From a virus (Duplodnaviria > Heunggongvirae > Uroviricota > Caudoviricetes), in the IMG/VR virus record IMGVR_UViG_2698536610_000001: DNA of 47,772 nucleotides, one strand, 5' to 3'. Positions within the stretch are counted from its first letter, which is position 1. Every line of letters starts with the position of its first letter. The translations under genes and the position numbers were made by a program. Below are positions 8,787-20,898 of the stretch, one piece after another. The notes beneath the pieces were generated by a model. That model was not told the origin of the DNA. It worked only from the letters and a program-made list of their open reading frames with translations, and did not search any database.

Positions 8787-9026
8787 ATGATCCGAATTAT
8801 GATTAGAATATTTTCTTTGACATTCGTTGCTTGCGCTGGCTTTGCTGCATATCACTTCAATAGTGTGCCATTGATGTTCACTTCTGGTAGCTTTCTTGTA
8901 ACATTTTTAGGTACATTTATTGTTAATAAAAAAAGTTCAGGGCATACAATAATTCAAAAAAGCGGTAGCCATTCAAAAAATAATCAGACGGTCGTTTTTG
9001 GAAATAATGAAAACAAGCGAGGCTGA
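8787..9026 (+). CDS. Small membrane protein with two predicted TM helices (cassette gene A)
   Basis: ATG 8787 with AGGA upstream; hydrophobic stretches IFSLTFVACAGFAAY and FTSGSFLVTFLGTFIV; stop 2 nt before gene B; AT-rich. Confidence 0.5.
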   Translation: MIRIMIRIFSLTFVACAGFAAYHFNSVPLMFTSGSFLVTFLGTFIVNKKSSGHTIIQKSGSHSKNNQTVVFGNNENKRG

Positions 9027-9028
9027 TC

Positions 9029-9625
9029 ATGGTTGGTGTTACTCAAAGGTCAGGGAATTACTCACGTAATGTGCAGGTGGTTGTCGATTCTAACTCTGTT
9101 GATATTATAAAGTCTCCATCGATTTTTATGGATCTTGTTGGTATTTTAGTTGATTCGAATGTTATTGATCCTCGTACAAACAATGACTACGAGCCATATG
9201 ATATTGAGAATAAAATAGACTTCAATGATGTTATAAAACATAGAGAACGTATTGAAGGGTTCTATCTATATTCTTCGATGATAGATAAAGCGTATGAAAC
9301 ATTAAATGAAAGTATGCCTACTGCTAAGGAAACGGCACTGAAAAGCATCAATTCACGATATCTTGATTGTCAAGGAGATTTATTGCTTAAACATAGAGAA
9401 GCGTATAAGAGCTGCAAGGATGCTCAGGAACGGAATAATTTAAAGATTCAATTGGTAAGAGAGTTTGCAGATTGGATAATAGACAGTGTAATAGAGCACA
9501 TCATTAAGAAATGCTTAAATTCTCTTATGGCAATGAATTACACAAGCGAAGAAATCGAATGCCATGCTTCTTTTATCGTTTATCATGCATTCGTAGAGTG
9601 TAAGATTCTGGAAAAACCAATATGA
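9029..9625 (+). CDS. Hypothetical 198-aa protein (cassette gene B)
   Basis: Tightly coupled to A upstream and C downstream (ATGA overlap); no motif recognised. Confidence 0.55.
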   Translation: MVGVTQRSGNYSRNVQVVVDSNSVDIIKSPSIFMDLVGILVDSNVIDPRTNNDYEPYDIENKIDFNDVIKHRERIEGFYLYSSMIDKAYETLNESMPTAKETALKSINSRYLDCQGDLLLKHREAYKSCKDAQERNNLKIQLVREFADWIIDSVIEHIIKKCLNSLMAMNYTSEEIECHASFIVYHAFVECKILEKPI

Positions 9626-9858
9626 TTATCTCTGATGTAACAAAACCAAGCCAAACCTTGTATTACCTGGGGGCTCGGTTATTAGAATGCATGAGTTCAA
9701 ATGCTTATTCGTATGTTGATATTATAGACTTGTATAATGAATTCAAATCTAAAAATAACAACTCTTCATTCACGCAATATATTTACACTTTAAATTGGCT
9801 ATATTTATTAGGCCTGGTTGATGCTAACGAAAATGGAGATTTGATATTATGTTTTTGA
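9622..9858 (+). CDS. Hypothetical 78-aa protein (cassette gene C)
   Basis: Overlaps B by 4 nt and D by 10 nt; small, probably helical. Confidence 0.5.
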   Translation: MIISDVTKPSQTLYYLGARLLECMSSNAYSYVDIIDLYNEFKSKNNNSSFTQYIYTLNWLYLLGLVDANENGDLILCF

Positions 9859-11573
9859 AACGGCTAATAGTCAGTTCTTTCAGGCTTGGAGTGATTCGTG
9901 ATATCGAATTTCACATTGGCGTTAATTTGATTATTGACCGAAACACCTCCAGCAAAGAGCAAACTGGAAATGGTGTGGGAAAAACTACTGTATTAAGAGC
10001 TTTAGATTTTTGTTTTGGAGCAGAACAACTGAATTTTTATACCGATCCTGAATTCAAGAAAGAAAATTCGGTTATAAAAAATTATTTGATAGAGAACGAG
10101 ATTGAGTTTTGTTTAATTCTCACAAAAGATTTGAATAATAAAACTGCACCAGTAATAAAAATTAAGCGTAAAATTACATCTGAGACTAATAAAACGAAGG
10201 TTATAGCCTCAATAAATGAAGAGTCCTATACGAAGGCTAAAGATTTCAACGAGGCTTTAAAAAGAACATTATATCTTGATTCCGCGATAAAACCGACCAT
10301 ACGAGAGATTATGGGACGTGTTATTCGAAATACGCATGACAAGATGTCGAACGCATTAAAAACGATAAAAATGGGTTCTAATACACAATATGAAACGTTA
10401 AATCTGTTTATGTTTGGGTTCGGTAACTCACAGATTCTGGATGAAAAACAGTCAGTGACTAAAGCCTATAAACTGGCGAAATCCGATTATGAAGTAATTA
10501 CTCGCCATCGCTCAAAGAATGCTTTGGAACAAGCTATTGCAATTATAAATAGAGATATTATAGCACAAGAAGAGTTAATTTCTAATTTTCAAGTGGCAGA
10601 CTCTTATAATGATATGCTTGCTGAGTTAAATGAGTTAAAAATTAAAATTAGTGAAGTTTCTATCATACTATCATCTTTGGAGTTTAAGCAAAAATTAAAC
10701 GATAAGGCTATACTAGATCTGGAAAAAAGTCATGAAAATATAAATACACTAGATCTACAGAAGTTGTACTTAGAAGCAACTGATCGGTTAGGTAACTTAA
10801 ACAAAGAGTTTACTGAGCTACTTTCGTTTCATAATAAAATGCTTGTAAAAAAAGCTGAGTTTATTAGAAAACAAATGCAGCCAGTGCTGCAAGAAATTTC
10901 CAAATATAAAGATGAACTAAATAACTTATTGACTCAAGAATCAGAGCTTTTAAAGAGTTTGTCTTCGCATGGGACATTGGCAGACCTGCAAATAATGCAA
11001 AAAAAATTAAATTCATTATTTGAAGAAAAAGGTGGGCTTGAAGCTGGACTACTTCAAATCCAAGAGATGGAGAACAACTTTAATATACTGAAAGCAAAGT
11101 TTAATGATGTGTCAGATAGATTAAAATCTAAACTTGACGATTTTAACAAACGTCTTGCGCTATTCAATTCCTATTTTTCTTTATATACTAAAAAATTATA
11201 TCAGGATGAATATATTCTTTCCTATAAAGATTCCTCCGGTTCTTTCGTTTTTACCATTGAACCTTTAGGAACTTTGCTCACATCAGGTAATCAGGGAGAA
11301 GGAAAAAAGAAAGCCCAGGTTGCCTCTTTAGATTTTGCCTATTTATCTGTCCAGGAGTCTTTAGAAGCCAGAACACCACGTTTTATAGCTCATGATGGAA
11401 TTGAGGCAATTCATGTAAATCAAATAAATAAGTTATTCGAGATAGCTTCGGGGATTAATGGTCAATATATATTGGCTATTCTTAAAGACAAGTTGGAGAA
11501 TATTGATCAAGACTTCATCAATAATAGTGTTGTGCTTGAGCTTGGGGAGGACGATAAGTTTTTTAGGCTTTAA
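9849..11573 (+). CDS. ABC-type P-loop ATPase with long central coiled coil (SMC/Rad50-like architecture) (cassette gene D)
   Basis: Walker A GNGVGKTT at aa 40-47 (nt 9966-9989); heptad-rich helical region roughly aa 220-440; C-terminal signature-like TSGNQGEG, Walker-B-like RFIAHD and a following His. Confidence 0.7.
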   Translation: MFLKRLIVSSFRLGVIRDIEFHIGVNLIIDRNTSSKEQTGNGVGKTTVLRALDFCFGAEQLNFYTDPEFKKENSVIKNYLIENEIEFCLILTKDLNNKTAPVIKIKRKITSETNKTKVIASINEESYTKAKDFNEALKRTLYLDSAIKPTIREIMGRVIRNTHDKMSNALKTIKMGSNTQYETLNLFMFGFGNSQILDEKQSVTKAYKLAKSDYEVITRHRSKNALEQAIAIINRDIIAQEELISNFQVADSYNDMLAELNELKIKISEVSIILSSLEFKQKLNDKAILDLEKSHENINTLDLQKLYLEATDRLGNLNKEFTELLSFHNKMLVKKAEFIRKQMQPVLQEISKYKDELNNLLTQESELLKSLSSHGTLADLQIMQKKLNSLFEEKGGLEAGLLQIQEMENNFNILKAKFNDVSDRLKSKLDDFNKRLALFNSYFSLYTKKLYQDEYILSYKDSSGSFVFTIEPLGTLLTSGNQGEGKKKAQVASLDFAYLSVQESLEARTPRFIAHDGIEAIHVNQINKLFEIASGINGQYILAILKDKLENIDQDFINNSVVLELGEDDKFFRL

Positions 11574-11859
11574 GATTTGTAATTTGATAGATATGTAGAT
11601 ATCATTTTTCTCGCTCAAAACTGACAGTCAGATTTGAGCGAATTGCTTATGTAAGTATTTCGCAGAATCATGCCATTTATATTTATTAGAACATACGTAC
11701 TTTAAATGTGGGAGGCTGTCATGTTGGTTCTTAAATGTTCGCTGACTATTGCGGTGGTGCGGGCAATTTATTGTTCTGTTATTCTTATGGATCGCCTTTC
11801 TGACTGATTTCATATTGGCGAGATAACGGGAGTTAAGTAGAATGCCTGCGGGTGCTTGA

Positions 11860-12018
11860 GGCTATCTGCCTCGGGCATGAATACCAACGGCAGATAGAGA
11901 AAAGCCCCAGTTAACATTACGCGTCCTGCAAGACGCTTAACATTAATCTGAGGCCAATTTCATGCTAGACACATGTAGGTTAGCCTCTTACGTGCCGAAA
12001 GGCAAGGAGAAGCAGGCT
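11860..12018. promoter_or_regulatory. hok/mok mRNA leader; expected location of antisense Sok RNA (not mapped)
   Basis: Inferred from hok/sok locus organisation; mok ORF begins at 11962. Confidence 0.35.
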
Positions 12019-12174
12019 ATGAAGCAGCAAAAGGCGATGTTAATCGCCCTGATCGTCATCTGTTTAACCGTCATAGTGACGGCACTGGTAACGAGGAAAG
12101 ACCTTTGCGAGGTACGAATCCGAACCGGCCAGACGGAGGTCGCTGTCTTCACAGCTTACGAACCTGAGGAGTAA
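12019..12174 (+). CDS. hok: Hok/Gef family type I toxin (mok in-frame extension from 11962)
   Basis: MKQQKAMLIALIVICLTVIVTALVTRKDLCEVRIRTGQTEVAVFTAYEPEE; the 70-aa upstream extension MLDTCRLASYVPKGKEKQA… resembles Mok; GGCGAGGGA-GAAA-TCCCTCGCC stem-loop at 12182-12203. Confidence 0.8.
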   Translation: MKQQKAMLIALIVICLTVIVTALVTRKDLCEVRIRTGQTEVAVFTAYEPEE

Positions 12175-12244
12175 GAGACCCGGCGAGGGAGAAATCCCTC
12201 GCCACCTCTGATGTGGCAGGCATCCTCAACGCACCCGCACTTAA

Positions 12245-14067: not shown

Positions 14068-14445
14068 ATGCGTGATATTCAGATGGTTCTTGAGCGTTGG
14101 GGGGCATGGGCGGCTAATAATCATGAAGATGTGACCTGGTCGTCCATTGCCGCCGGTTTTAAGGGATTAATTCCTTCAAAAGTAAGATCTCGTCCGCAAT
14201 GCTGTGACGATGACGCGATGATCATTTGTGAATGTATGGCTCGCCTGAAAAAAAACAACAGCGATTTACATGATTTATTGGTGGACTATTATGTCGGCGG
14301 CATGACTTTTATGGCGCTTGCACGTAAGCATGGGCGATCTGATTGTTGGGTTGGCAGGATGCTCCAGAAAGCTGAGGGCGTAGTGGAGGGCATGCTGATG
14401 GTGTTGGATCTCCGATTGGAGATGGATGCTGATTGTTCGAAATAA
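14068..14445 (+). CDS. Late-gene antiterminator Q (small QuuD/phage-82-type)
   Basis: [26 protein letters not shown]…; about 125 aa; followed by a strong intrinsic terminator (tR' analogue). Confidence 0.65.
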
Positions 14446-14543: not shown

Positions 14544-14572
14544 AGCCAGCCTCCCCAAAGGCTGGTTTTTTT
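14544..14572 (+). terminator. Intrinsic terminator, tR'-like, downstream of Q
   Basis: AGCCAGCCT-CCCCAA-AGGCTGG followed by TTTTTTT. Confidence 0.6.
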
Positions 14573-16756: not shown

Positions 16757-17029
16757 ATGGCCAGAGTTAATATTCATTGTCCCCGTTGTCAGTCAGCTCA
16801 GGTTTACCGCCATGGTCAGAACCCTAAAGGCCGTGACAGATTTCGCTGCCGTGACTGCCACCGTGTGTTTCAGCTCACTTATACTTATCAAGCACGTAAG
16901 CCGGGTATGAAAGAGCTGATAACTGAAATGGCCTTTAATGGTGCCGGGGTTCGCGATACCGCCAGGACAATGAAAATTGGTATTAACACCGTCATCCGGA
17001 CTTTAAAAAACTCGCGCCAAAGCGAATAA
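16757..17029 (+). CDS. insA: IS1 InsA (transposition regulator / N-terminal part of InsAB')
   Basis: MARVNIHCPRCQSAQVYRHGQNPKGRDRFRCRDCHRVFQLTYTYQ… with zinc-finger and HTH as in IS1 InsA. Confidence 0.85.
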   Translation: MARVNIHCPRCQSAQVYRHGQNPKGRDRFRCRDCHRVFQLTYTYQARKPGMKELITEMAFNGAGVRDTARTMKIGINTVIRTLKNSRQSE

Positions 17030-17451
17030 CTTCTTCGCCTGTTGCCCATGCTGATGTGGCGCTTATCTGCGAGCTTGATGAGCAATAGAGCTACGTTGGC
17101 AGTAAAGCCCGGCAACACTGGCTCTGGTACGCGTACAACACCAAAACAGGCGGTGTACTGGCCTACACTTTTGGTCCCCGAACCGATCAAACGTGCCGGG
17201 AGCTACTGGCACTGCTTACACCCTTCAACATCGGCATGCTGACCAGCGATGACTGGGGCAGCTATGGCCGGGAGGTGCCGAAGAATAAGCATCTGACCGG
17301 CAAAATATTCACCCAACGCATTGAGCGTAATAATCTGACGCTACGCACCCGCATTAAGCGGTTGGCTCGTAAAATAATCTGCTTCTCACGCTCAGTTGAG
17401 ATCCACGAAAAAGTGATCGGAGCGTTTATCGAAAAACACATGTTCTACTAA
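17030..17451 (+). pseudogene. insB: IS1 insB frame interrupted by an in-frame amber codon
   Basis: The InsB frame (-1 relative to insA) reads …ALICELDEQ*SYVGSKARQHWLWYAYN…; TAG at 17086-17088 replaces the Trp of the remembered DEQWGYVG motif; the distal part (17236-17451) is intact. Confidence 0.55.
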
Positions 17452-17470
17452 TTGGATGCACTACCATCAC

Positions 17471-17847
17471 TTGCATGTCTTGCTATCTTATCTTCAGAGA
17501 AAATAGTGCAAAGGTTTTTATTTGGGTGTCTTAATAGTTTAGGAAGTAAAGTTAAGGCTATTATCCACAAGGATATATCTGCAACATGGAGACTTTGTGA
17601 TATATCTTCAAGACTGTGCCTGAGTGAAAGTTTGTTAAAAAGAAAATTAAAACACGAAGGCTTATCATTTGGTAAACTAAATCTTGAAGAGCGAATGGTG
17701 ATGGCGGAAAGCTTATTAAGCTACAATTTATATTCTGTTGGGAAAGTTGCTGAGATATGCGGTTATGAAAATACGTCATATTTTGTAAGTGTTTTCAGAA
17801 GATATTTTGGTGTTCCTCTCCACAAATATTCATCAAGATTTTTTTAG
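17471..17847 (+). pseudogene. AraC-family regulator, C-terminal HTH fragment (5' end replaced by IS1)
   Basis: The ORF reads out of the IS1 right end; only an AraC-type HTH domain of about 125 aa remains (…YENTSYFVSVFRRYFGVPLHKY…); AT-rich. Confidence 0.5.
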
Positions 17848-18053
17848 AAAAACACATGATGTAACGTGATGCGATTTAATGATTTTGTAATTTTCGTATT
17901 TGATAATTTTATGATGCTTTCAGCTACGCCAGAATAATCGCTGGCGTTTTTCTTTTTGAATAGATGTTCAGGCCTTACGCTAATGTAACTTCTATACCTT
18001 TCCCTCTTCGTTCCGAACCGTGTACACCATCCGTTATTTGCGGAGGTGAGGCT

Positions 18054-18269
18054 ATGAAATCCATGGACAAGTTAACAACGGGCATTGCCTACGGCACCTC
18101 CGCAGGCAGTGCTGGCTACTGGTTTTTACAGTGGCTTGATCAGGTCAGTCCATCACAGTGGGCTGCTATTGGTGTGCTGGGAAGTCTGGTTCTGGGCTTT
18201 CTGACTTACCTGACGAATCTGTACTTCAAAATAAGAGAAGACAAGCGTAAAGCTGCGCGGGGAGAGTAA
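18054..18269 (+). CDS. Class II holin (phage 21 S-type pinholin) with dual-start motif
   Basis: [71 protein letters not shown]; two TM segments; GGAGGTGAG Shine-Dalgarno; Met1/Met4 starts. Confidence 0.85.
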
Positions 18270-18273
18270 TTCA

Positions 18274-18618
18274 ATGACTCAAAACTATGAACTGATTGTG
18301 AAAGGGATCCGCAATTTTGAGAATAAAGTTACGGTAACTTTAGCGTTACGGGACAAAGAACGCTTTGACGGTGAAATTTTTGACCTGGACATCTCGCTGG
18401 ACCGTGTTGAAGGTGCCGCGCTGGAGTTTTATGAGGCAGCAGCCAGAAGGAGCATCAGACAGGTCTTCCTGGATGTTGCTGCCGGGTTATGTGAAGGGGA
18501 TGAGCTGTCGCCGGAAAAGCGCCCCATAATTTTAGAGGCGCAGAATGTGTGGATAACCTACAAAGGAAAGCTACCGGGAAGAATTACTGGTTCTCTGAAG
18601 ACTCCGCCGAAATGGTAA
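18274..18618 (+). CDS. YdfR-like (DUF1327) protein inserted between holin and endolysin
   Basis: 114-aa ORF starting 5 nt after the holin stop; position and N-terminus match remembered Qin YdfR. Confidence 0.5.
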   Translation: MTQNYELIVKGIRNFENKVTVTLALRDKERFDGEIFDLDISLDRVEGAALEFYEAAARRSIRQVFLDVAAGLCEGDELSPEKRPIILEAQNVWITYKGKLPGRITGSLKTPPKW

Positions 18619-18856
18619 TTTCACCAGCATATTTTTCTTCCAGTAATACCGCCAGCCACTTGAAAGAATTTTGTTGTTGCTGGGACCATTTGGGGTTGAG
18701 TGATTCAAGCTGGAGCGATGCCAGTGTTGGTTGCATTTGTTCCTTGGGAATTGAGAATGCCAGATATGAAAATGCGACAGTAAGGGCATTTACATCATCC
18801 CGAAGCTTGGAAATGCAGTCGAGCAACTCCTGTAGAGAAATGGTGCTATTGTCCAT
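18584..18856 (-). CDS. Hypothetical 90-aa protein, antisense within the lysis cassette
   Basis: ATG preceded by a strong SD (AGAGAGGA, about 6 nt); convergent with and overlapping the ydfR-like 3' end by about 35 nt; no family recognised. Confidence 0.35.
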   Translation of the reverse strand: MDNSTISLQELLDCISKLRDDVNALTVAFSYLAFSIPKEQMQPTLASLQLESLNPKWSQQQQNSFKWLAVLLEEKYAGEITISAESSENQ

Positions 18857-18961
18857 AAACAATCCTCTCTATTGTATTTAACTATTCCTTGCCTGATTCA
18901 ACAGGCCGGGACAGATAAACATATCCAGGGTTCAGAAACCGATAAATCCTGATAAATATCC

Positions 18962-19504
18962 ATGAACGTAAAAATCAGATACGGCCTGTCGGCTGCCGTT
19001 CTGGCACTGATTGCCGTCGGTGCGCCTGCGCCTGATATTCTCGACCAGTTTCTGAATGAAAAAGAAGGTAACCACACAACGGCATACCGCGATGGTTCCG
19101 GCATCTGGACCATCTGTCGGGGTGCCACGGTGGTGGATGGAAAACCCGTTTTTCCCGGTATGAAACTGTCGAAGGAAAAATGCGACCAGGTTAACGCCAT
19201 TGAACGGGATAAGGCGCTGGCATGGGTGGAGCGCAATATTAAAGTGCCACTGACCGAACCACAGAAAGCGGGTATAGCGTCATTTTGTCCCTATAACATT
19301 GGCCCCGGTAAGTGTTTCCCGTCGACGTTTTATAAGCGGCTGAATGCCGATGATCGTAAGGGGGCATGCGAGGCGATTCGCTGGTGGATAAAAGATGGTG
19401 GGCGTGATTGCCGCCTGACAAAAGGGCAGAAGAATGGCTGTTATGGGCAGGTCGAGCGGCGCGATCAGGAAAGCGCACTGGCGTGCTGGGGGCTGGAGCA
19501 ATGA
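18962..19504 (+). CDS. SAR endolysin (T4-lysozyme-like, phage 21 R-type)
   Basis: N-terminal Ala/Gly-rich signal-anchor (LSAAVLALIAVGAPAP); catalytic E-x8-D-x5-T triad in NEKEGNHTTAYRDGSGIWTICRG. Confidence 0.85.
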   Translation: MNVKIRYGLSAAVLALIAVGAPAPDILDQFLNEKEGNHTTAYRDGSGIWTICRGATVVDGKPVFPGMKLSKEKCDQVNAIERDKALAWVERNIKVPLTEPQKAGIASFCPYNIGPGKCFPSTFYKRLNADDRKGACEAIRWWIKDGGRDCRLTKGQKNGCYGQVERRDQESALACWGLEQ

Positions 19505-20037
19505 AAATTAATCCGGATCTTATAGGCGTTGTCGTTATTGCTGGCCTTTCGGTCGCTCTCGTCAAGAGTTGCTCTCACGCCAGTAATCTTCAGAGCGATA
19601 ACGACGTTCTGCGAAGTGACAACTCTATGCTGGGGCAGGTAATCGCCACCCAGGCATTCAACTTCAATCGATTCAATCAGGTTGCAGAACATGCCAACAG
19701 TCTTAACTCCCTGATCGACACCAGCACCGAAAAAACCGTAATCGAATACCGGGAGATTCTCCGCCGTGAAAAAACCTGTGATCTGCCTGTTCCTGCTGAT
19801 ATCGCTGGTGGGTTGCTCGAATACACGTACCGTTTACGTGCCAGCGCCATGCACACCGATACCGGCAGACCTAATGAAGCCTATGATCGTACCGCTACCA
19901 CCAGCTCAATGACCTACTGCCAAGCTGTCTTGTGGATTAAGCCGCTACTGGCGTTGATAGAAAAAGGAAATAATAATTTTTCGAGTATTCGTGAAATTGA
20001 TGAGTTGCGTTACAGACCATCTGAGCATGGCCAGTAA
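19501..20037 (+). CDS. Rz i-spanin
   Basis: ATG overlaps the endolysin stop; N-terminal TM (LIGVVVIAGLSVALV) then helical periplasmic domain; embedded Rz1 frame. Confidence 0.8.
   Translation: MKINPDLIGVVVIAGLSVALVKSCSHASNLQSDNDVLRSDNSMLGQVIATQAFNFNRFNQVAEHANSLNSLIDTSTEKTVIEYREILRREKTCDLPVPADIAGGLLEYTYRLRASAMHTDTGRPNEAYDRTATTSSMTYCQAVLWIKPLLALIEKGNNNFSSIREIDELRYRPSEHGQ
19766..19912 (+). CDS. Rz1 o-spanin lipoprotein, embedded in the +1 frame of Rz
   Basis: Hand translation: (GTG)KKPVICLFLLISLVGCSNTRTVYVPAPCTPIPADLMKPMIVPLPPAQ; lipobox LVGC; Pro-rich; GGGAG SD 10 nt upstream. Confidence 0.7.
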   Translation: MKKPVICLFLLISLVGCSNTRTVYVPAPCTPIPADLMKPMIVPLPPAQ

Positions 20038-20205: not shown

Positions 20206-20898
20206 TCAAATCTTATCTAACTCATTATAGGCTTCGATAATAAAAATTCTGATTTTAATAAGGCATGATTCAATGAAAGGAATTACTTCATGGTCATTCC
20301 CATGGAATCTTATTTTTTTCTCTTCGGTAATGACTATGTTTAAAGGTACACCATTACCACTTCTTTGTAATTTCCCATTTTCGAAAGTAAAGTCTTCTAA
20401 TTTTTTGCCATTGATGTGGTTGTTTTTAAAGAGAATTTTTGCTGAGCTTCCTGCTGTGATTAAACCAAAACCATCTACGCTCACACTTAGGTCTTTAACA
20501 GAACTCTCTTCTCTTAAGGGGATTGGTTGTCTGTGCTTTACTTCATTAGTGAGATTACACATCATTTCCAACCAAGATTCGCCAGTGTGATAATCCTGTA
20601 TAGAAGTAAAAATTTTATATAATGGAGAAGATGATGGTGGGTTTATTTTTAGCGTCTTTGAGAAAAATTTATCAATAAACTCTTTTTTTCCGTAAGGGAA
20701 ATATATTTTGGGGCGCTCATCATTACTGCGTGGAGAAATATATTTATCATAGGTATCATTAGCGAGATACTCTAAGGAACTTCGTAAGTTTTCCAAAATA
20801 GCTTTGACTTTTACAGGCTTGATATGCTGTGTCTGTCTCATTATGTCAAGACTTTCTTCAACTTCTTGCAATAAGTCTAACGAGCCTTCTCTAGACAT
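20206..20898 (-). CDS. Hypothetical 230-aa protein in an AT-rich island (moron)
   Basis: Long ORF in strongly AT-rich DNA where chance ORFs are unlikely; opposite to phage late transcription, in the position lambda uses for bor; no motif recognised. Confidence 0.6.
   Translation of the reverse strand: MSREGSLDLLQEVEESLDIMRQTQHIKPVKVKAILENLRSSLEYLANDTYDKYISPRSNDERPKIYFPYGKKEFIDKFFSKTLKINPPSSSPLYKIFTSIQDYHTGESWLEMMCNLTNEVKHRQPIPLREESSVKDLSVSVDGFGLITAGSSAKILFKNNHINGKKLEDFTFENGKLQRSGNGVPLNIVITEEKKIRFHGNDHEVIPFIESCLIKIRIFIIEAYNELDKI

Follow-up and report, generated by a model that had tools for sequence, protein, structure and literature searches.

Module shuffling in a predicted pinholin, SAR-endolysin and embedded-spanin lysis cassette of a Qin-site prophage of Escherichia coli

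The lysis pathway of phage 21 (OL657228.1) is encoded by the genes S21-R21-Rz21/Rz1-21, among which S and R abut and the o-spanin lies in the +1 frame of the i-spanin; its record annotates two products of the holin gene, the S21-71 antipinholin and the S21-68 pinholin. Endolysins of the signal-anchor-release (SAR) class are described as having two to three basic residues at the N-terminus, then a transmembrane domain (TMD) that is free of charges and weakly hydrophobic, and an E-x8-D-x5-T motif, the definitive test of SAR behavior being whether a pinholin or depolarization frees the enzyme from the inner membrane (PMC9239132). The cryptic prophage Qin of E. coli K-12, located at the chromosomal site ydfJ, carries the series essQ-ydfR-rrrQ-rzpQ/rzoQ. 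HK225, ZF40, and mEp237 constitute a family of embedded two-component spanins (Kongari et al. 2018, PMC6139136), and Escherichia phage Chlobot (PP925838.1) is a deposited complete phage genome from an environmental sample.

Here, we compare with these systems a lysis locus found in a stretch of 47,772 nucleotides (the window), which contains a full-length lambdoid prophage at the same chromosomal site as K-12 Qin and extends from integrase to tail fibers; the genes for terminase, portal, capsid, and tail are intact. We put at about 90% the probability that the locus is the late-gene lysis cassette of this E. coli prophage and that it serves a pinholin/SAR-endolysin/two-component-spanin pathway composed of three known modules. 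The genes S, R, and Rz/Rz1 follow one another on one strand, in the order known from phage 21, and their ancestry is mosaic. The original prediction had described a phage-21-type system consisting of a dual-start holin, an endolysin, Rz, and Rz1, and all of these features are found where it had placed them. Its functional reading (dual-start pinholin, SAR-type lysozyme, embedded two-component spanin) stands, but as a statement of homology "phage-21-type" applies to the holin alone. When the products were aligned with the phage 21 lysis proteins, a comparison on which that prediction had been staked, similarity was found for the holin and the endolysin and was lacking for the spanins. The prediction had also run holin and endolysin together as a single uninterrupted system, overlooking two open reading frames that lie between them. 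The features of the cassette, in window coordinates, are the following.

18042-18046, + strand: Shine-Dalgarno sequence GGAGG for the holin dual start, read from the sequence
18054-18269, + strand: class II holin gene of the S21 family, 71 aa, product beginning MKSMDKL (PF04971)
18274-18618, + strand: ydfR-family gene (DUF1327; PF07041, 1.5e-42)
18584-18856, - strand: antisense ORF of 90 aa (phrog_2411, 2.4e-59), annotated in RefSeq
18962-19504, + strand: endolysin, a T4-lysozyme-family muramidase of the RrrQ type, 180 aa (PF00959, 1e-23, 84 bits; phrog_7 endolysin)
18980-19033, + strand: SAR-like signal anchor of the endolysin, residues 7-24, from hydropathy and composition
19064-19066, 19091-19093, and 19109-19111, + strand: endolysin catalytic residues E35, D44, and T50, from the alignment with R21
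19501-20037, + strand: Rz-like i-spanin (inner-membrane subunit), 178 aa (phrog_214 "Rz-like spanin", 2.1e-54)
19519-19563, + strand: N-terminal TMD of Rz, residues 7-21, from hydropathy
19766-19912, + strand: Rz1-like o-spanin (outer-membrane lipoprotein), 48 aa, GTG start, wholly inside Rz in the +1 frame
19805-19816, + strand: Rz1 lipobox LVGC, with the predicted lipidated Cys17 at 19814-19816

The holin is the component closest to phage 21. It is a member of PF04971 (3.5e-35; 120 bits, cut-off 26), and 68 of its 71 residues (96%) are identical to those of S21; the holin of K-12 Qin belongs to the same family (84.5%). The anticipated Met-Lys-Ser-Met dual start is present as MKSMDK at 18054-18071, with Met1 at 18054 and Met4 at 18063, and is the same as the dual start annotated in phage 21; phage 21, DLP12, and HB-Coli0 share the conserved initiation region. 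The 71-aa product initiated at Met1 would be the antiholin form, and the 68-aa product initiated at Met4 the pinholin form. Residues of the G/A/S/T class make up 63% of TMD1 (residues 7-25), whereas TMD2 (residues 36-54) is hydrophobic and carries G40, S44, and G48; a weakly hydrophobic TMD1 and a G40xxxS44xxxG48 motif in TMD2 are pinholin traits. Both segments match S21 exactly from residue 9 on; within them, only I7L and S8T, where TMD1 begins, are different. Unlike in phage 21, there are no tRNA genes upstream of S. The holin protein occurs on 660 contigs in a collection of 15 billion proteins.

The endolysin has a different affiliation. It is of the K-12 RrrQ type: its identity is 89% to K-12 RrrQ but only 30% to R21 and RrrD (174 residues compared), and it lacks the closeness that would be expected of an R21 orthologue. 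It also has eight cysteines where R21 has four. What it shares with R21 is the fold, an N-terminal SAR-like segment, and the catalytic positions: the proposed E-x8-D-x5-T triad is present as E35-x8-D44-x5-T50, in register with R21 (3HDE, 3HDF) and also with RrrD (4ZPU). No obvious Shine-Dalgarno sequence precedes the endolysin start. The protein is found on at least 1000 contigs of the same collection, and a search of NCBIfam gave a sub-threshold match for the endolysin and none for the holin, YdfR, the antisense ORF, Rz, or Rz1.

The Ala/Gly-rich signal-anchor segment of the original prediction was also recovered. Since K4 and R6 are followed by 18 charge-free residues (YGLSAAVLALIAVGAPAP), 50% of which are G/A/S/T, the N-terminus fits the published SAR description (PMC9239132). 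Its mean Kyte-Doolittle hydropathy is 1.61, compared with 1.60 for the SAR segment of R21. Instead of a releasable SAR domain, such an N-terminus could be a Sec signal peptide that is cleaved off or an anchor that stays in the membrane: the segment is just 18 residues long, has a signal-peptide-like n-h-c layout and ends in VGA-PAP, and our literature search found no experimental paper showing SAR behavior of the RrrQ subtype. However, each of the small-x-small sites at which cleavage might take place has a proline directly after it, and proline at +1 blocks signal peptidase I. In composition and mean hydropathy, moreover, the segment matches that of R21, for which SAR behavior is proven. The gene also accompanies a pinholin; pinholes are much too narrow to let a folded enzyme through, and the pairing recurs in related prophages. 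We consider a cleaved or permanently anchored endolysin improbable; its sequence features and its pairing with a pinholin argue for SAR behavior of the RrrQ subtype.

With the spanins, the resemblance to phage 21 is lost. Rz, the ATG of which overlaps the endolysin stop codon as ATGA, has no significant match to the phage 21 protein (E 0.23). Comparisons of Rz with Rz21 and RzpD gave E values of 0.23-0.5, RzpQ was likewise without significant similarity, and the likeness of Rz1 to its phage 21 counterpart is limited to the signal peptide, the lipobox, and adjacent residues. Neither Rz nor Rz1 has a match in Pfam, and by sequence similarity the pair falls outside the lambda/phage 21 spanins (PF03245 for Rz, and the Rz1 family of Pfam). 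The pair is equally unrelated to the DUF2514-type RzpQ/RzoQ of K-12 Qin. By contrast, tblastn aligned Rz with mEp237 (84% identity over the matched span), HK225 (72%), and ZF40 (35%), and Rz resembles the i-spanins of this family both in its N-terminal TMD and in adjoining the endolysin gene. Rz1, for its part, shows the arrangement of their o-spanins, a lipoprotein encoded wholly within the +1 frame of the i-spanin, and shares with them the mature peptide CS(N/T)TRTVYVPAQCTPIP...PLPPA. Rz departs from the family over its final ~13 residues, and the partners of the pair in this cassette are an S21-type pinholin and an RrrQ-type endolysin in place of the HK225/mEp237 holins. We assign Rz and Rz1 to the HK225/ZF40/mEp237 family of embedded spanins, from the bioinformatic classification of which a spanin function is predicted. 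Like the endolysin, the Rz protein occurs on 1000 contigs or more of the 15-billion-protein collection.

The embedded gene deserves separate consideration. Its frame is indeed the +1 frame of Rz ((19766-19501) mod 3 = 1), with the GTG start and the lipobox LVGC that had been proposed. The signal is MKKPVICLFLLISLVG, and the mature peptide has 32 residues, 25% of them proline. Lipoproteins are sorted according to the Lol +2 rule; here the residue at +2 after the lipidated cysteine is a serine, which fits sorting to the outer membrane. A frame so short, with a GTG start and no Pfam or NCBIfam match, might have been open in Rz by chance, in which case Rz alone, or nothing, would act on the outer membrane; its exact sequence is absent from the 15-billion-protein collection, and an embedded lipobox ORF of this kind does arise in codon-shuffled Rz genes, if only in 1.8% of them. 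However, an embedded ORF with a lipobox-type cysteine and a mature peptide of nearly fixed length (32-33 residues) was found in all 10 of the Rz homologues examined, which span phages of six genera (Escherichia, Serratia, Stenotrophomonas, Providencia, Pectobacterium, and Hafnia). Among these homologues the mature Rz1 peptides are 50-88% identical, compared with 39-64% for the co-encoded segment of Rz, and the third codon positions of Rz are constrained solely inside the overlap (conservation 0.83, against 0.54 outside it). The HK225/ZF40/mEp237 family is, in addition, listed among the o-spanins (PMC6139136). Because the ORF recurs in every homologue and its mature peptide is better conserved than the stretch of Rz that shares its bases, we conclude from the sequence comparison that Rz1 is a real gene; the conservation data effectively refute a chance frame.

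Two extra genes separate S from R, which abut in phage 21. The first, ydfR, is shared with K-12 Qin; its product is 82% identical to K-12 YdfR over residues 1-74 and differs from it at the C-terminus. It has no hydrophobic segment, and we regard the gene as a cytoplasmic passenger within the cassette and not as a known lysis component. K-12 YdfR has been reported to bind the N-terminal domain of RNase E (PMC13232886). The second, the antisense ORF, is missing from K-12 Qin and present in Chlobot, where holin, ydfR, antisense ORF, and the 5' part of the endolysin gene follow one another at 96.4% nucleotide identity; this likeness stops inside the endolysin gene, at about window position 19414, beyond which Chlobot has another spanin region. 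The antisense ORF has a ribosome binding site (AGAGAGGA-N6-ATG) and a pN/pS of 0.26-0.54 relative to divergent copies. It has no Pfam match itself; nearly all of its homologues come from Escherichia/Shigella, and they carry neither functional names nor Pfam domains. Its AlphaFold2 model consists of four helices (pLDDT 71), for which the best Foldseek match in the PDB and BFVD reached no better than E 0.49. It is probably a moron transcribed against the late operon. As its segregating sites (8, 12, and 15 at the first, second, and third codon positions) do not strongly favor third positions, we also considered an ORF of 110 aa on the + strand (18549-18881) as the true gene and rejected it: divergent copies gain stops in that frame, whereas the antisense ORF stays open. 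PADLOC returned nothing for YdfR, the antisense ORF, or a downstream 230-aa ORF. One could imagine that these passengers tune lysis, YdfR acting through RNase E on the stability of the late mRNA, or the antisense ORF providing convergent transcription against leaky endolysin and spanin synthesis in the lysogen. We think this very improbable; if it were true, it would add an extra regulatory layer to the pinholin-SAR pathway in the numerous E. coli prophages with these genes.

By analogy with the characterized phage 21 and lambda systems, the pathway would operate as follows. The 68-aa pinholin would build up in the inner membrane until triggering, when it would form small depolarizing pinholes, and the 71-aa form with its extra Lys2 would act as an antiholin and postpone this event. 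The RrrQ-type lysozyme, exported by Sec, would be kept inactive on the periplasmic face through its weakly hydrophobic N-terminal signal anchor; depolarization would free it to refold, so that its E35/D44/T50 site could degrade the murein. Inner-membrane Rz and the embedded outer-membrane lipoprotein Rz1 are expected to form a complex that spans the periplasm and, once the murein is gone, disrupts the outer membrane.

The surroundings of the cassette bear on its expression. The Q gene lies at 14068-14445, and between it and S are a reverse-strand gene, an IS1 pseudogene (16757-17451) that cuts short an AraC-type gene immediately before S, and two terminator-like hairpins.

14544-14567: terminator-like hairpin, consensus match only
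17926-17947, + strand: terminator-like hairpin, ~100 nt upstream of the holin start, consensus match only

Since the cassette is 3.6 kb downstream of Q, with these elements in the interval, its expression after induction is uncertain. A scan for promoters found 14, compared with 13.3 expected from shuffling, and we claim none. The cassette could therefore be intact in sequence and functionally silent, cut off from the late promoter by IS1 and the inserted genes, a relic like those of K-12 Qin and DLP12; in strain PK8566 the same cassette lies within a clearly degraded prophage. On the other hand, none of the four lysis ORFs is truncated, each is the common allele, and the prophage has kept its integrase, excisionase, and repressor/cro-like genes along with those for terminase, portal, capsid, and tail. 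The hairpins need not be an obstacle either, for RNA polymerase modified by Q reads through terminators. A silent relic seems to us unlikely, though it is the most serious of the alternatives considered here, and we favor a lysis cassette that may still be expressed from the prophage.

This is a standard, well-understood set of E. coli prophage lysis genes and as such was already known: parts of the cassette region are matched by 4930 of 5426 complete E. coli genomes, the combination of modules is widespread among E. coli prophages, including Stx phages, and each module has a described counterpart, so that the locus carries little scientific weight in itself. The practical gain is a correction of annotation. 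In RefSeq the i-spanin of the HK225-type family is labelled "hypothetical protein," and the 48-aa o-spanin Rz1 is unannotated in public records; annotation pipelines could carry the HK225-family spanin labels over to such records. For the biology of these phages, the cassette is a clean case of module shuffling within a lysis operon, with one recombination junction inside the endolysin gene.

The lysis system originally predicted at 18054-20037, a phage-21-type set of dual-start pinholin, SAR endolysin and embedded Rz/Rz1, is borne out in that all of the described features were located in the sequence. The holin and endolysin genes are not adjacent; ydfR and an antisense ORF, neither of them mentioned in that prediction, lie between the two.

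Features of the lysis cassette (coordinates, strand or frame, description)
18054-18269, +, holin ORF of 71 aa; begins MKSMDKL, with Met4 at 18063
18274-18618, +, ydfR (DUF1327), between holin and endolysin
18584-18856, -, antisense ORF of 90 aa (phrog_2411), between holin and endolysin
18962-19504, +, endolysin ORF of 180 aa; starts MNVKIRYGLSAAVLALIAVGAPAPD; E35-x8-D44-x5-T50
19501-20037, +, Rz ORF of 178 aa; start overlaps the endolysin stop by ATGA
19766-19912, +1 frame of Rz, Rz1 ORF of 48 codons; GTG start; encodes MKKPVICLFLLISLVGC...; lipobox LVGC

The reading of the first gene as a dual-start pinholin of the S21 type is fully supported. Its product, which has the MKSM start, is assigned by Pfam to PF04971 ("Bacteriophage P21 holin S", 120 bits), and 68 of its 71 residues are identical to S21 in the complete phage 21 genome that served as reference (OL657228.1), where the dual start is annotated as yielding both the antipinholin S21-71 and the pinholin S21-68. 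The differences (I7L, S8T and R64K) are all conservative, and from residue 9 on both hydrophobic segments are those of S21, G40xxxS44xxxG48 included. The translation-initiation region, in which a GGAGG precedes Met1 by 8 nt, is likewise conserved with phage 21.

The label "phage-21-type" holds for the function of the cassette as a whole, but its homology to phage 21 extends to the holin only. The endolysin is just 30% identical to R21 as against 89% to RrrQ of the K-12 Qin prophage, which rules out an R21 orthologue. It carries a PF00959 lysozyme domain (Pfam) and matches the solved structures of R21 (3HDE, 3HDF) and RrrD (4ZPU) at ~1e-14; because residue 34 aligns with residue 34, E35, D44 and T50 fall on the catalytic residues of R21. 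The predicted SAR-like segment is also present: the basic residues K4 and R6 accompany an 18-residue charge-free stretch that is 50% Gly/Ala/Ser/Thr and has a mean hydropathy of 1.61 (1.60 for the R21 SAR segment), in agreement with the working description of SAR domains (PMC9239132), for which release by pinholin is the definitive test (PMC9239132). Taken together, the domain, the register of the triad, the N-terminal segment and the two identities argue for a SAR-type lysozyme of the RrrQ subtype. Because it has eight cysteines (C52, 74, 109, 118, 136, 150, 160 and 175), none of them in the SAR segment, compared with four in R21, extra periplasmic disulfides are suggested for the RrrQ-type enzyme. 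No obvious Shine-Dalgarno sequence precedes the gene.

Rz has no Pfam match and no significant similarity to the Rz of phage 21 or to K-12 RzpD and RzpQ. It matches PHROG 214 ("Rz-like spanin") at 2e-54. In tblastn, its identity over the matched span is 72-84% with the HK225 and mEp237 versions of Rz and 35-53% with those of phages from Serratia, Stenotrophomonas, Providencia, Hafnia and Pectobacterium. HK225, ZF40 and mEp237 form one family under embedded i-spanins and embedded o-spanins alike (Kongari et al. 2018; PMC6139136). The N-terminal TMD of Rz spans residues 7-21.

The embedded Rz1, with its GTG start and LVGC lipobox, was seen where predicted. When ten Rz homologues were extracted and their alternative frames translated, every one proved open in the +1 frame over a stretch that includes a lipobox-type Cys, compared with only 1.8% of codon-shuffled Rz genes containing a comparable ORF. 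The mature peptide has 32 residues in the homologues (33 in ZF40), with the consensus CS(N/T)TRTVYVPAQCTPIP..L..P...PLPPA over the ten. Across them, identity to the window is 50-88% for mature Rz1 but only 39-64% for the Rz residues read from the identical nucleotides; third-position conservation in Rz is 0.83 inside the overlap and 0.54 outside it, as expected of dual coding. The GTG at 19766, preceded by GGGAG, is the sole start yielding a charged n-region (MKK), and it is kept in the E. coli clade, 16 codons ahead of the lipobox Cys. In the Serratia, Stenotrophomonas, Providencia and Hafnia phages (loci L008-L013), Rz1 instead appears to start at a TTG that stands 24 codons ahead of the Cys and has a strong AGGAG in front of it; in the window a TAA closes the equivalent position. 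For Serratia phages OS31 and BZS1, the annotated Rz1 length of 107 aa looks too long. The residue after the lipidated Cys is Ser, consistent with outer-membrane sorting, and the conserved cysteines (C29, the second of the Rz1 precursor, and C93 and C140 of Rz) bring to mind the disulfide-linked spanin complex of lambda.

The ancestry of these genes is mosaic. Phage Chlobot is 96.4% identical to the window from the holin gene through ydfR and the antisense ORF and across most of the endolysin gene, within which this similarity stops at ~19414, and it is mEp237 that shares the rest of the endolysin and Rz (85%). Related loci pair the same holin and endolysin with a lambda-type Rz (PF03245) or, in some relatives (L101/L102, 1089-1623), with a ParD/ParE toxin-antitoxin pair that occupies the expected spanin position downstream of the RrrQ-type endolysin. 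Such partial matches and variable partners mark the cassette as a recombinant in which HK225-type spanins are joined to an S21-type holin module and an RrrQ-type endolysin, with a recombination junction inside the endolysin gene at ~19414.

Regarding the intervening genes, no hydrophobic segment was found in YdfR, which is 82% identical to K-12 YdfR over residues 1-74 but has a different C-terminus. A recent study reports that the K-12 protein binds the catalytic (N-terminal) domain of RNase E via residues 1-72 and co-purifies with RNA (PMC13232886). The antisense ORF runs against the late operon, overlaps the 3' end of ydfR by 35 nt and has a good ribosome binding site. Its homologues are nearly all from Escherichia/Shigella, and its pN/pS of 0.26-0.54 points to moderate purifying selection; as an alternative, an overlapping "shadow" ORF on the + strand was rejected, as stops arise in it in divergent copies. 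The predicted model has four helices (pLDDT 71), and searches for families, defence systems and folds gave no match. L101/L102 keep this ORF without ydfR.

The window is a segment of E. coli chromosome: the 2.3-kb region of the cassette is 100% identical in three complete genomes, and of 5426 complete E. coli genomes, 4930 have matches to parts of this region. Comparison with annotated genomes shows the Qin site (ydfJ) to be occupied by a full-length lambdoid prophage, in which integrase, excisionase, exonuclease, dicB and repressor/cro-like genes are followed by hokD, rem, ydfU and Q, and then by terminase, portal, capsid, tail and tail-fibre genes.

Features flanking the cassette
14068-14445, Q, upstream of S
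between Q and S, reverse strand, lipocalin gene
upstream of S, YbgA-family gene
16757-17451, upstream of S, IS1 pseudogene truncating an AraC-type gene
17452-17847, AraC-family HTH gene (phrog_1450), C-terminal half only, cut by the IS1 pseudogene
17926-17947, upstream of S, terminator-like hairpin
20206-20898, -, 230-aa ORF (phrog_13652, E 3e-159), just downstream of Rz

Because it is placed downstream of the antiterminator gene Q and upstream of the holin gene, the IS1 insertion (16757-17451) may be polar on late-gene expression, and since this and other insertions separate Q from S, expression of the cassette is in doubt. Downstream of Rz, the 230-aa ORF, without a match in Pfam, NCBIfam or PADLOC, occupies the slot that holds bor in lambda and phage 21; in strain PK8566 its counterpart is interrupted by IS1. 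That strain (L001, 3352-33659) has the same lysis cassette in a ~28-kb composite running from ttcA (Rac site) to ydfJ (Qin site) with several IS1/IS2 copies, an arrangement suggestive of Rac-Qin rearrangement or deletion. In the early region, upstream of hokD, ~8800-11600 aligns to 9432-12218 of the best-matching genome (L017), where an "ABC-three component system" is annotated, a candidate defence module that includes a DUF2326 protein.

Gene identities and motifs best support lysis by the pinholin-SAR endolysin-spanin pathway, as worked out in phage 21 and lambda (summarised in PMC6139136): timed pinholes would depolarise the inner membrane, depolarisation would set free and activate the tethered lysozyme, and the Rz-Rz1 complex would then destroy the outer membrane. 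Nothing here is new, since descriptions exist both of the cassette and of every module in it, and all are very common. RefSeq labels Rz a "hypothetical protein" and leaves Rz1 unannotated. A 15-billion-protein collection has the Rz protein on 1000 or more contigs and contains no exact copy of the 48-aa Rz1; the only useful by-product is a correction to the annotation of Rz and Rz1.
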